Shown: positions 1-45,899, counted from the first letter of the stretch. The stretch: DNA of 64,000 nucleotides from Raillietiella orientalis (GCA_036172245.1 JAYWIR010000064.1:1-64000); one strand, 5' to 3'. Numbers and translations: made by a program. Notes: generated from the letters alone by a model not told the origin.

Positions 1-840
1 AAACCAACCAAGATGAACATCAAAATTACAAACTTGGAGATGTTTGAGATATGGTCAACATATCAGAGTAAAAGCTTCAGATTACCAGAATGAAGGGGGT
101 GGGAAGAAAAACTAATAAAACCACTTTGCAGCACGCATTAAAAAAAATAAATACAGGTGAGAGCAAGCACCTGGTGAAGTGTGAAAACCTCAAAAGTATT
201 CTCACACCTATCACATAAGCAAAGCTGTTTTTGAGATGAGTATAAGGGAACCGTCGGAAAAAATTCGGATCAGAGATCATACCGTTTCACTGATCACTGA
301 TCTCTTAGCACTCTCGTATAATCAAATGTACAGATAATCAACATGTGCATTCTTGGTAATGTACATTTAAATGCACGCAAACATACTTTTAACAATCCCT
401 TTTCTATCACAAAGTTGACGTTAAATCATCCTCCAATCACGAATGTGCATAGGAAAAAGTTTTGCGCTTAACTCGTGCACTTTTGCACGTGCATATTAAC
501 TTGAGCCAAACTTTTTTTTATTACAATGCATACCACTTTGGAAGGTTAACCTAAAACTGCGACATTTTACTAACATTCTGTACAAACAAAAAACAAACCG
601 TAAGGGCTGTCATATAGCTATACAACATATTAGCATATGAATTATGTAATGCTCAATAATGGAGTTATTTTCGATAGATGGCGTGTACTATAAATCATGA
701 AAGTTGGAAATTTTCATAGAAACTTCACAGGACCATCACTACATGGCGCAGTGTCATAAACACAGAAATTAACAAATGTTAAATGCAGCTGTTCTTAAAT
801 CACATAAATAAGTATTTCTTTATTTACACACTTTTTGCTA

Positions 841-41219: not shown

Positions 41220-44200
41220 ATGTACCTATATAATTTAACACTGCAACGTGCAACAGGAATAACTCATGCAGTTCATGGAAATTTTTCGGGTACAAAATTG
41301 CAAGAAGTTGTGGTTTCAAGAGGAAAATTATTAGAGCTGTTGAGGCCAGATCCAAACACTGGAAAAGTACACACTGTTCTTTCAACAGAAGTATTCGGAA
41401 TTATCAGGTCTTTACTTGTCTTTCGCCTAACAGGCGGTACAAAAGGTATCGTATTTATAAAATATTTTTATACATGTGAAGCAATGTGTTCTTTAGATTA
41501 CATTGTAGTTGGATCTGATTCTGGTAGAATAGTAATTTTGGAGTATAATGCATCAAAAAATGAATTTGAAAAAATTCATCAAGAGACATTTGGGAAAAGT
41601 GGATGTCGGAGGATTGTTCCTGGTCAATATTTAGCATTTGACCCTAAAGGTCGGGCAGTTATGATAGGTATGAGTGATTAAAAAGTGGGATGTTTATTGA
41701 CTTCAGGTTTTTTTCCACAGGTGCAGTAGAAAAACAAAAACTGGTTTACATTCTAAATCGTGATGCACAGGCTAGATTGACTATTTCATCACCTTTAGAA
41801 GCACACAAGAGTAGTACTCTTGTTTACCATATGGTTGGTGTGGATGTAGGATTTGAAAATCCCATGTTTGCATGTTTGGAAATTGATTATGAGGTTTGTT
41901 TAACCTGGTGTGTTTGTGCCTAATTTTTCGCAATTAGGATGCTGATCAGGATCCTACAGGAGAAATAGCTCAAAAAACTCAGCAGACTTTGACTTTTTAT
42001 GAACTTGACTTAGGTCTCAATCATGTTGTACGCAAGTATAGTGAGCCACTTGAGGAGCATGCCAATTTCCTGATATCTGTTCCTGGTGGTTCTGATGGTC
42101 CTAGTGGAGTTCTCATTTGTTCGGAGAATTACATTACTTATAAAAACTTAGGCGATCAACATGATATTCGATGCCCTATTCCAAGAAGACGAGTAAGTCA
42201 CTTGGTTATTTGCACCTGGATCACACATTTGCAGAATTTCTGCATTTGATCTATGGTTCTATAAAATTGCAAAGCTATCGTTGAAAGGCAGGCACTAATG
42301 CTCCCTTTCTGGTTTTGTTTGCAACATTTATGTAATTTAGTAGATGAATGGTAATACAACTGGTTTTTTGTAGAATGATTTGGATGACCCAGAGCGGGGT
42401 ATGATTTTTGTTTGCTCTGCTACTCACAAGACGAAATCAATGTTTTTTTTTCTGGCACAGACAGAGCAAGGAGATATTTTCAAAATAACTTTAGAAACAG
42501 ATGAAGACATGGTCACAGAAATAAAATTAAAATATTTTGATACTGTGCCTGTGGCTGTTGCCATCTGTGTTTTGAAGACAGGATTTCTGTTTGTTGCATC
42601 AGAATTTGGCAACCAGTAAGCACATTTATGCATGATATTAATTATTTCTGTAGTTATCTGTATCAGATTGCTCATCTGGGAGATGATGATGATGAGCCTG
42701 AATTCAGTTCAGCTATGCCATTGGAAGAAGGGGATACGTTTTTTTTCGCCCCTCGACAATTGAAAAATTTAGTGATGGTAGACGAGATGGAATCATTATC
42801 TCCAATTATGCATTGTCAGATTGCTGATCTAGGTAAGTTCTGTGTGTTTTCAGTTTAAGAAAAAATTTTGTTCTGTCCCCAGCTAATGAAGACACTCCTC
42901 AGCTCTATGTAGCCTGTGGTAGAGGGTCTCGATCTTCCCTCAGGGTTTTGCGTCATGGTTTGGAGGTGAGCGAAATGGCGGTTTCTGAGCTGCCAGGTAA
43001 TCCTAATGCAGTATGGACAGTGAAGAAACGGTCTGATGGTCAGTTGGTCGATGTTCATTTGCCTGTGATGGCTGACTTCAGGTGACTTCTGCTGCAAACA
43101 TCAGATGAATATGATGCGTATATCATAGTTTCATTTGTAAATGCTACCCTGGTGTTATCTATTGGTGAAACTGTAGAGGAAGTAACGGATTCAGGTTTTC
43201 TGGGAACCACTCCAACGTTATCTTGTTCTCAGTTGGGAGATGAGGCTTTGGTGCAGGTGGGTGTACAAGAAGTTCTGTAGTTGATTGGGTCTTACTATGA
43301 TGTTTTCCGTGTTTCAGCTGATTTTTGAGATGTATTCATTTGCTACTGAGTGATGTTTGCTTGAGACTGCAATGAATTTCTTTTCAGTGTAATTGCTTTA
43401 TTTTTTGTTTTTGCTTTTCTGTAGGTCTATCCTGATGGAATTCGCCACATTAGAGCAGATAAACGAGTCAATGAATGGAAAGCCCCTGGGAAGAAGATGA
43501 TTCTCAAGTGTGCCATTAATCAACGTCAAGTAGTTATTGCTTTGAGTGGTGGTGTTTTAGTTTACTTTGAAATGGATATGGTAAGATCTGCTCAGATAAT
43601 TCCATTGACATTGTTTATAGACTGGGCAACTTAATGAGTACACAGAACGTAAAGAGATGTCAACAGATGTAATTTGCATGGCACTTGCTAATGTACCAGT
43701 AGGAGAACAACGCTCTCGATTTCTAGCTGTAGGTCTAGAAGATAATACAGTCCGAATTATTTCTCTGAATCCTACTGTAAGTTCATTTGATGCTTTTCTC
43801 CATAATCCACATCACTTTTAGGATTGCTTGGCTCCTCTCAGTATGCAGGCTTTGCCAGCTCCTCCAGAATCATTATGCATTGCTGATATGGGAGGTTCTG
43901 AAGGAAGGGAAGGAGAACCTGGAACTCCAGGCACATTGTATTTGTATATTGGTTTGCAGAATGGTGTGCTTCTTCGCACTGTATTAGACCAAGTGAGTTA
44001 AGCAAAGAAAGTTTGTTGAGGGATGCTTGTGATGCTTTTAGATAACTGGTGATTTGTCTGATACCCGCACACGTTATTTGGGATCAAGAGGTGTCAAACT
44101 GTTCAAAGTACATATGCAGGGCAGTGAAGCAGTAAGTTAGTTTTGTGAACTATGAAACCGAAAAAAATGTGCGAACATCTGAGCATATTTGTTTTTTAGG

Positions 44201-45899
44201 TATTGGCAATGTCAAGCCGCTCTTGGCTTAGCTATTATTATCAAAATCGTTTTCATTTGACTCCACTTTCCTATGATACTTTGGAATACGCCAGTGGGTT
44301 TGCATCTGAACAGTGCCCTGAGGGCATTGTAGCTATATCTACAAATACTCTTCGTATTTTGGCTCTGGAAAAACTAGGTGCCATTTTCAATCAAGTGTCT
44401 TATCCACTGGAATACACACCACGGAAATTCATCATCCATCCAGAATCTGGCCATCTTGTCATGATTGAAACTGATCATAATGCATATACTGAAGAGACCA
44501 AACAGCAGCGTAAACTTCAGATGGCAGAGGAAATGAAGGAAGCTGCAGGCGAGGATGAGATGGAGTTGGCGCAAGAAATGGCAGAGGCCTTTTTGAATGA
44601 ATCTTTGCCTGAAACTGTGTTTGGGGCTCCAAAAGCTGGTCCTGGAATGTGGGCTTCTCTTATACGCATTCTGAATCCCATCGATGGTCGCACACTTAAG
44701 TTAGTGCGTTTGGAACAGAATGAAGCAGCTCTCAGGTAACATTAGGCAACAGTGGATGCATGGTGTTCTTTTAGCTTATGCTTTGTGAAGTTTGCCAACC
44801 AGAGGCACGATGACACTCATCTCATCATTGGAGTAGCTCGTGACTATCAGCTGAATCCTAGACAAGTTCCAGGAGGTTTTCTTTATACGTTCCGGTATGT
44901 ATGTTTTCAAAGATGGTGAAGTACACTAGTTAATTTAGGGTAAACTACGAGTGTTCTGATATGGAGTTAGTGCATAAGACACCTACGGATGAGATTCCTA
45001 TTGCCATGGCTCCGTTTGCTGGGCGTGTTTTGGTTGGAGTTGGTCGTATGCTGAGAATTTATGAGAAAGGGAAGCGCAAATTGTTGAGGAAGTGTGAGAA
45101 CAAACATGTACCTAACATGGTAGTGAGCATTCATACCATGGGTCATCGTGCATATGTGGCTGATGTACAAGAAAGTATTCTGTTTGTTCGATATCGCCGT
45201 CCTGAGAATCAGCTTAATGTCTTTGCTGATGATACATATCCTCGATTTGTCACTTGTTGTTGTCTTTTAGACTATGACACTTTGGCAATTGCTGACAAGT
45301 TTGGCAATATCTCTGTGGTAAGACTTTCTTCTGGTAGCTGGAAGTTTTTGAAAATACTCTCTGCAGATTCGGTTGCCATCAGGAGTTAATGATGATGTAG
45401 AAGAAGATCCTACAGGCACCAAATCTTTATGGGATCGTGGTTTATTAAGTGGTGCATCTCAGAAAGCTGATACTCTTACTAATTTTTATGTTGGAGAAAC
45501 TGTGTTATCCCTTCAAAAGGCCACATTAATTCCTGGTGGTAGTGAGTCCCTTGTGTACACAACCTTGAGTGGTACCATCGGAATTTTGGTTCCTTTCACT
45601 TCACACGAGGATCACGACTTTTTTCAACATTTGGAAATGCATATGCGAGCAGAGCATCCTCCACTTTGTGGGCGAGAACATGTAGCTTTTCGATCAAATT
45701 ACTTTCCTGTTAAGGTATGTATCTGTTTGTTATGGTCACAATTTGAGAGTGTTCTTAGAATGTCATCGATGGTGACCTTTGTGAACAGTATAATTCCATA
45801 GATTCAGCTAAACAAAAAAGTATTGCAGAAGATTTGGATAGAACTCCAAATGAAGTATCCAAAAAACTTGAAGATATACGAACACGCTATGCATTCTAG
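41220..45899 (+). CDS. SF3B3: Splicing factor 3B subunit 3 (SAP130), 17 coding exons
   Basis: Starts [26 protein letters not shown] and ends [13 protein letters not shown]. Near-continuous similarity to SF3B3 ([61 protein letters not shown]). There are 16 GT-AG introns: 14 of 38-68 nt and two long ones (42193-42373, 43257-43424). Confidence 0.98.
42210..42329 (+). ncRNA. Intronic box H/ACA snoRNA candidate (predicted 18S rRNA pseudouridylation guide)
   Basis: Hairpin 1 (acctggatca/tgatctatggt; upper stem tgcaga/tctgca), H box ATAAAA at 42261-42266, hairpin 2 (ttgcaaa/tttgcaa; upper stem gaaagg/cctttc), and ACA at 42324-42326 followed by ttt. Pocket-to-ACA distance is 14 nt. Pocket strands tatcgtt and tggtt are complementary to the conserved 18S sequence ACCA-UA-AACGAUG. 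Confidence 0.8.
43292..43353 (+). ncRNA. Intronic box C/D snoRNA candidate (predicted 28S rRNA 2'-O-methylation guide)
   Basis: Box C ATGATGT at 43297-43303, D' CTGA at 43318-43321, D CTGA at 43346-43349, terminal stem ttac/gtga. The guide tccgtgtttcag upstream of D' is complementary to the conserved 28S sequence UUGAAACACGGA. Box D lies 75 nt upstream of the 3' splice site. Confidence 0.75.

Follow-up and report, generated by a model that had tools for sequence, protein, structure and literature searches.

Intron 4 of the SF3B3 gene of Raillietiella orientalis appears to harbor a genuine box H/ACA snoRNA gene at 42210-42329 (+), which would work like the 3' half of SNORA8; the probability of this reading is put at roughly 0.87. 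All positions refer to the window, that is, the whole 64,000-nt stretch of DNA that was analysed (GCA_036172245.1, JAYWIR010000064.1:1-64000). The strongest support for the H/ACA reading is comparative: the same 3' guide occurs in the orthologous intron of other organisms. The most likely task of the RNA is to guide the formation of a single conserved 18S rRNA pseudouridine, at the Psi1081 site. As a gene, the candidate is of an ordinary kind and involves no new mechanism, and H/ACA cargo in SF3B3 is already known.

Host gene and host intron

A full-length SF3B3 protein was placed on the window by ungapped tblastn, and refinement of the splice sites then gave the SF3B3 gene model (Table 1). 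The spliced open reading frame is complete, and its product is 80-84% identical to animal SF3B3 proteins. In a quick SF3B3 tree, the window protein falls among arthropod-like rows, in a loose grouping whose branching was not resolved. The exons that flank the candidate match human SF3B3 (E around 1e-47), and in the gene model the candidate lies in the fourth of 16 coding introns, as an earlier note on this DNA had proposed.

Introns 1-16 measure 51, 53, 44, 181, 38, 50, 66, 168, 40, 45, 49, 68, 39, 44, 49, and 44 nt. Only two are long, introns 4 and 8 (181 and 168 nt); the remaining 14 of the 16 span 38-68 nt, with a median of 47. The classic layout is a housekeeping gene whose oversized introns each carry one snoRNA in sense orientation. 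A C/D-box-like element was seen inside intron 8 of the window SF3B3. For SNORD111 (HBII-82), there was no Rfam match in the window.

Architecture of the candidate RNA

The candidate consists of two hairpins joined by a hinge that holds the H box and followed by a tail with the ACA box, the arrangement by which the H/ACA class is recognized (Table 1). The top of the 3' pocket, at the upper stem, lies 14 nt from the ACA box, and the upper stem of the 5' hairpin, in the MFE fold, lies 16 nt from the H box; both distances lie within the 14-16 nt range of H/ACA RNAs. The hairpin-H(ATAAAA)-hairpin-ACA+3 layout and the 14-nt spacing between pocket and ACA that had been described for this segment were recovered at the same positions. 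The plus strand folds with -33.8 kcal/mol (z = -3.07), a stability that none of 200 shuffles equalled; the minus strand reaches z = -1.76, with 10 of 200 shuffles equally stable.

Table 1. Coordinates of the host gene and of the candidate snoRNA in the window
Feature	Position	Strand	Remarks
SF3B3 gene	41220..45899	+	17 coding exons, 16 GT-AG introns, 1216-aa ORF, ATG to stop
SF3B3 exon 4	41938..42192	+	85 aa; human SF3B3 residues 191-275, E 7e-48; 5' of host intron
Host intron 4 (GTAAGT...TAG)	42193..42373	+	181 nt
SF3B3 exon 5	42374..42615	+	human SF3B3 residues 276-355, E 3e-47; 3' of host intron
H/ACA snoRNA candidate	42210..42329	+	about 120 nt; ends inferred; intron 4 of SF3B3, sense strand
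5' hairpin	42214..42257	+	10-bp lower stem with one bulge, 6 x 2 nt internal loop, 6-bp upper stem, loop AUU; MFE fold
5' hairpin, lower stem	42214-42223 / 42247-42257	+	one bulge
5' hairpin, internal loop	42224-42229 / 42245-42246	+	
5' hairpin, upper stem	42230-42235 / 42239-42244	+	
H box AUAAAA (DNA ATAAAA)	42261..42266	+	fits ANANNA
3' hairpin, lower stem, 5' strand TGCAAA	42268..42273	+	pairs with 42318-42323
3' hairpin, 5' pocket strand	42274-42282	+	includes guide element UAUCGUU
Guide element UAUCGUU	42276..42282	+	pairs with 18S AACGAUG: 6 Watson-Crick + 1 G-U
3' hairpin, upper stem region	42283..42309	+	GAAAGG/CCUUUC, apical 4-bp stem, loop CUAA
3' hairpin, upper stem strands	GAAAGG 42283-42288 / CCTTTC 42304-42309	+	
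3' hairpin, 3' pocket strand	42310-42317	+	includes guide element UGGUU
Guide element UGGUU	42310..42314	+	pairs with 18S (G/A)ACCA immediately 5' of target U
3' hairpin, lower stem, 3' strand TTTGCA	42318..42323	+	
ACA box	42324..42326	+	adjoins 3' stem, then TTT; expected mature 3' end 42329

The 18S target and the predicted mode of action

The 3' pocket can pair with 18S rRNA to either side of one uridine, in ACCA[U]AAACGAUG; U-A then stays free at the foot of the upper stem. Complementarity was assessed on the human 18S segment around Psi1081, with which the two guide elements form 7 + 5 = 12 contiguous pairs, G-U allowed; on this segment the pocket strands bracket the unpaired UA just as the earlier note had described. 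Human 18S Psi1081 is the U in the RNase T1 fragment ACCA-Psi-AAACG, is about 94% modified, and aligns with the unmodified yeast U1024 and E. coli U813, while human Psi1056 (GA-Psi-CAG) aligns with yeast Psi999 (excerpts of Taoka 2018, PMC6182160). SNORA8 is reported to guide 18S-1056 with hairpin 1 and 18S-1081 with hairpin 2; it is listed as RF00393 with TAF1D as host, and its conservation is given as 'Vertebrates' (excerpts of Jorjani 2016, PMC4914119). Both sources agree with the target that the earlier note had named, human Psi1081 as served by SNORA8 (ACA8).

Following established H/ACA biology, the candidate RNA would be transcribed within the SF3B3 pre-mRNA, and its two hairpins and H/ACA boxes would be bound co-transcriptionally by dyskerin, Nop10, Nhp2, and Naf1/Gar1. 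Splicing and debranching would free the intron, which exonucleases would trim to about 120 nt, with an end 3 nt past the ACA. Pairing of UAUCGUU with AACGAUG and of UGGUU with (G/A)ACCA would present the U equivalent to human 18S Psi1081, and dyskerin would isomerise this unpaired U. The scheme would require the 18S segment ...ACCAUAAACGAUG... in the host species.

Relatives in SF3B3 introns of other organisms

Metagenome contigs were scanned with the exon-5 peptide, and 80 loci were kept. An intron lies exactly at the junction of residues 275 and 276 (275/276 junction) in 14 of these loci, 13 with both exons visible plus L036, which is cut upstream. In half of them (L020, L021, L022, L032, L035, L036, and L041) this intron contains an H/ACA RNA; in L006, L007, L010, L012, L042, L050, and L051, where the intron measures 52-1109 nt, this RNA is absent. 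The window candidate likewise lies on the sense strand at the SF3B3 275/276 junction.

The RNAs of the seven loci are 134-156 nt long, with two hairpins and a hinge that carries an H box. Their 5' pocket (GGUAUCU...UCG) fits CGA-U-C-AGAUACC, the Psi1056 site, and their 3' pocket ((G/U)CAUCGUU...UGG) forms 7-8 + 3-4 pairs at the Psi1081 site. The terminal box lies 15-17 nt past the upper stem and reads ACA in L020, L032, and L041 and AUA in L021, L022, L035, and L036. Two further loci, L004 and L005, have no 275/276 intron; the same 5' hairpin and hinge occur there in the SF3B3 intron after residue 519, where the locus ends before the element is complete. In the 275/276 intron of L009, a weak match of degenerate appearance (15 bits, E 0.26) was set aside as chance, as was a model match on the minus strand of L011. 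By this comparison, the SNORA8 guide pair can apparently pass from one intron to another within its host gene and can lose one of its two guides.

Covariation and covariance models

In MAFFT alignments of the whole RNAs and of the 3' domains the boxes did not line up, and the structure for the covariance model was therefore set by hand. Model R1 was built from five members with this hand-set structure and with the window excluded; a second model, R2, was also built without the window. R1 recovers the two members left out of it (L022 with 48.1 bits, L036 with 83.7 bits). In the seven-member alignment, which was made by the model and fitted to the structure, a procedure that favours pairing, 92.4% of cells are paired and both partners vary in 15 of the 21 pairs, a result reached by none of 500 shuffles; when the partners are slid as a control, pairing falls to 27-43%. 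Fixed guide strands beside covarying stems, as they occur in the relatives, are the pattern that selection on a guide RNA would leave.

In a search of both window strands, the best match of either model is the 3' domain of the candidate (42246-42329), with 14.0 bits and a rough E-value of 0.11 for R1, and 14.7 bits and a rough E-value of 0.19 for R2. These matches are not significant window-wide, and the candidate match vanishes when the window is searched with the default filters of the covariance-model search. When the search is limited to the intron alone, the E-value of the candidate is 3.1e-4. A model match at window positions 1-41 (-) was set aside as chance, with only 4 guide pairs. Of the 11 pairs that make up the 3' hairpin in the joint, model-fitted alignment, 10 are present in the window copy, several of them via double changes, and the window copy carries the shared 3' guide (...AUCGUU / UGG...) adjoining the covarying upper stem.

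Under plain local alignment, scores between the window intron and the six orthologous introns with a full family member were no higher than those of shuffles. An exception in the plain local alignments was L012 (9 of 500 shuffles), whose intron has no visible H/ACA features. Position, architecture, and guide are shared by the window copy and the relatives. Common descent is likely rather than proven, with position, architecture, and guide as the whole of the argument.

Comparison with known families and with other SF3B3 cargo

No Rfam family reached the gathering score in the window, so that the Rfam search by which the earlier note had wished its candidate checked gave no assignment; in 16 metagenome loci no family reached it either. 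At E-values up to 10, the region 42195-42345 yields weak H/ACA matches only (ceN100, 15.1 bits; TtnuHACA22, 15.9 bits). Within the same limit of E 10, SNORA8 (RF00393) does not appear among the matches of this window region, L021, or L032, and the L032 element has no Rfam H/ACA match at all. A weak SNORD15 match at 42673-42778 lies within a coding exon and was set aside, as was a weak mir-263 match on the minus strand, regarded as chance.

SNORA8/ACA8 (RF00393) resembles the candidate in being a two-hairpin H/ACA RNA whose 3' hairpin addresses 18S Psi1081; with the relatives it also has in common the 5' target, Psi1056, and the order of the hairpins. It differs in its host (TAF1D instead of SF3B3), in that its model is unmatched, and in its Psi1056 guide, which the window copy does not have. 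By the RF00393 model, the candidate does not qualify as SNORA8, although its relatives carry the two guides of SNORA8. The plant snoF1/F2/snoR5a family (RF00482) matches L021 with 37.9 bits (E 2.6e-6), below its gathering score of 60, on the basis of a consensus shared with the 5' guide of the relatives, GGUAUCU...UCGAAA. In contrast, the plant 3' hairpin has another pocket, and the window copy is without the GGUAUCU...UCGAAA guide. Yeast snR31 is presumably the guide for Psi999.

The same host gene also carries H/ACA cargo in an arthropod: Drosophila CG13900 (Sf3b3) is given as host of nine snoRNAs, including Psi18S-1086 and Psi28S-3308 (excerpts of PMC9074282). A literature search for the name 'Psi18S-1086' found no paper. 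Position 1086 of fly 18S is taken here, from numbering offsets, to be the human Psi1056 site. Among vertebrates, introns 3 and 6 of chicken SF3B3 host HBII-82/SNORD111B (excerpts of PMC2653536), which supports, for chicken, the statement that vertebrate SF3B3 hosts C/D snoRNAs of the SNORD111 family. SNORD111/HBII-82 shares the host gene with the candidate but is a C/D box RNA for 2'-O-methylation of 28S, whereas the candidate is of the H/ACA type. The suggestion of a different cargo in the same host gene is therefore sound relative to vertebrates, but it loses its novelty, since Drosophila Sf3b3 already hosts H/ACA RNAs (PMC9074282, same excerpts).

The 5' hairpin and the missing Psi1056 guide

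The candidate is likely the counterpart of the two-guide (Psi1056 + Psi1081) H/ACA RNAs in the same intron, with only the 3' guide kept. The Psi1056 5' guide is present in all six full-length relatives and absent from the window copy: no pocket geometry within the 5' hairpin of the candidate pairs with the Psi1056 segment. Models R1 and R2, moreover, skip the 5' domain of the candidate. Because of this lack of a pairing geometry and the skipping of the 5' hairpin by the models, the window lineage would seem to be without the first of the two guides, through loss or replacement. The 5' hairpin, which is stable and in the MFE fold has an internal loop of only 6 x 2 nt, probably serves either as a structural half for RNP assembly only or as a guide for another site.

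The same two observations would also fit a decaying relic, that is, a former two-guide H/ACA gene which has lost its 5' guide and from which no stable or active RNP is assembled; the chicken ACA8 homologue, reported as orphaned by nucleotide changes (excerpts of PMC2653536), and the degenerate-looking L009 match provide parallels. The rest of the candidate fits decay poorly. The H box, the ACA, both stems, the 14-nt spacing, and the 12-pair guide are all intact, and the 3' strand of the guide forms more pairs than its equivalent in the relatives (5 vs. 3-4). With -15.7 kcal/mol for the 62 nt that precede the H box, the 5' hairpin is the most stable among 16 sites found in the window with the descriptor described below, and an inert insert of 120 nt would be expected to shrink among introns of 38-68 nt. 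Decay is thus judged quite unlikely, and a gene that still guides through its 3' half is preferred.

Chance expectation for the architecture and for the guide fit

A descriptor for the 3' half of an H/ACA RNA required an H box, an ACA, and a lower and an upper stem, each of at least 5 bp, with a pocket between them and with the upper stem ending 14-16 nt from the ACA; it was applied to the window, plus and minus strand, and to 100 dinucleotide shuffles. The count is 16 sites for the window, against 12.4 +/- 3.8 for the shuffles (n = 100). When a 5' hairpin of -15 kcal/mol or lower is added, one site is left, the candidate, against 0.44 expected, and at least one such site occurs in 36 of the 100 shuffles. 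The two-hairpin architecture alone is no rarer than chance, and about one in three 64-kb windows is expected to show one.

These counts leave room for a chance look-alike, in which an AT-rich intron forms two hairpins with ANANNA and ACA motifs and the 18S complementarity is fortuitous. Such a reading also gains from the 18S target having been picked by the earlier note after the pocket was seen and from the zero Rfam families at gathering score. The guide fit argues otherwise. Elsewhere the number of guide pairs is at most 3 in the other 15 window sites and at most 8 in 1242 shuffle sites; the 12-pair fit is beyond chance. Furthermore, seven other loci point to this target independently, through the RNAs in their orthologous intron; of the 16 introns, only the host intron and one other are long; and the candidate is the top covariance-model match in the window. 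A look-alike is very unlikely against this evidence.

The CAB box, with a consensus close to UGAG, is a terminal-loop motif of scaRNAs. That the candidate is a real H/ACA-class RNA with another main role (an orphan, a Cajal-body RNA, a guide for another RNA via its 5' pocket, or a small-RNA precursor), the 18S fit being secondary, is extremely unlikely: its 5' pocket, compared with short 18S motifs only, has no assigned target, but no CAB box or UGAG-like motif was found by eye in the terminal loops AUU and CUAA, and the feature conserved with the relatives is precisely the 18S guide.

Implications

Read as an H/ACA snoRNA gene, the candidate adds a well-supported member of this class to an animal genome that lacks annotation, with one pseudouridine predicted in the 18S rRNA. 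The comparison extends the SNORA8 guide pair beyond vertebrates, to SF3B3 introns of several eukaryotes, and the Rfam models miss this conserved SF3B3-intron group at gathering score on the members tested. The group may be of use to snoRNA annotation pipelines and for following the co-evolution of rRNA modification sites and their guides.

A wider history is offered tentatively, at somewhat short of even odds: SF3B3 may be an old, conserved invertebrate snoRNA host, carrying a SNORA8-type double guide and a C/D RNA; SNORA8 may be older than annotated and have changed its host to TAF1D toward vertebrates; and the window lineage may have lost or replaced the Psi1056 guide. If this is true, Psi1056, which is found in yeast and human, would be gone in Raillietiella orientalis or another RNA would have taken it over, and the lineage would offer a case of a two-guide RNA splitting its functions.

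The H/ACA RNA and its host intron in other SF3B3 loci

Among the seven metagenome loci that carry a SNORA8-like H/ACA RNA in the intron orthologous to SF3B3 intron 4, AUA replaces ACA as the 3′ box in four (L021, L022, L035, and L036), and the spacing between the upper stem and the 3′ box is 15–17 nt, compared with 14 nt in the window (box and spacing were read by hand in L022 and L041). In loci L004 and L005, the junction between SF3B3 residues 275 and 276, where this intron is otherwise located, is without an intron, and the 5′ hairpin and hinge of a SNORA8-like RNA occur in the intron after residue 519; both loci end before the 3′ half, leaving only the 5′ hairpin and hinge in view. In these two loci the same RNA thus occupies another intron of SF3B3. 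The covariance model built from the relatives' RNAs, with the window copy excluded, also finds a weak match in the orthologous intron of locus L009, upstream of exon 5 (15 bits, E = 0.26). This match includes GGUAUCA and a tail of the form ...CUGGAAC...ACA, lacks the AUCGUU guide, and may be a degenerate copy.

A C/D-like element in SF3B3 intron 8

The SF3B3 gene of the window (41220–45899) is very compact, with 14 of its 16 introns measuring 38–68 nt, which suggests a genome of small introns. Its protein shares about 80–84% identity with SF3B3 proteins from many animal phyla, and no close relative is present among the 120 proteins compared. Besides intron 4, the only long intron is intron 8, which contains a C/D-box snoRNA-like element; about 70 nt separate the 3′ end of this element from the 3′ splice site. 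The element's matches to C/D families in Rfam (sR9, SNORD51, SNORD126, and SNORD18) are all sub-threshold, that to sR9 scoring 21 bits (E = 0.033). The guide is presumably complementary to the conserved stretch of LSU rRNA close to the U18/snR18 methylation site.

Positions of the snoRNA-like features in the window and in the metagenome loci
Feature	Sequence	Position	Strand
SF3B3 intron 8	window	43257–43424	
C/D-box snoRNA-like element	window	about 43291–43354	+
Terminal stem	window	43292–43295 / 43350–43353	
C box (AUGAUGU)	window	43297–43303	
Guide, upstream of D′	window	43306–43317	
D′ box (CUGA)	window	43318–43321	
D box (CUGA)	window	43346–43349	
SNORA8-like 5′ hairpin and hinge	L004	5290–5366	
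SNORA8-like 5′ hairpin and hinge	L005	6167–6243	
Weak model match	L009	367–483	+

In 16 of the 80 metagenome loci kept after the scan with the SF3B3 exon-5 peptide, the sense strand of SF3B3 contains the 9-nt core of this C/D guide, with 22 occurrences in all and five of them in L066. A C-box-like motif precedes the core and a D′-like box follows it in 15 of the matching loci (L004, L005, L021, L031, L032, L033, L035, L036, L037, L041, L053, L055, L063, L066, and L079); the match in L038 is without boxes. The copy in L021 lies at the position equivalent to intron 8 of the window. SF3B3 thus seems to be widely conserved as a host gene for this C/D RNA as well as for the H/ACA RNA.
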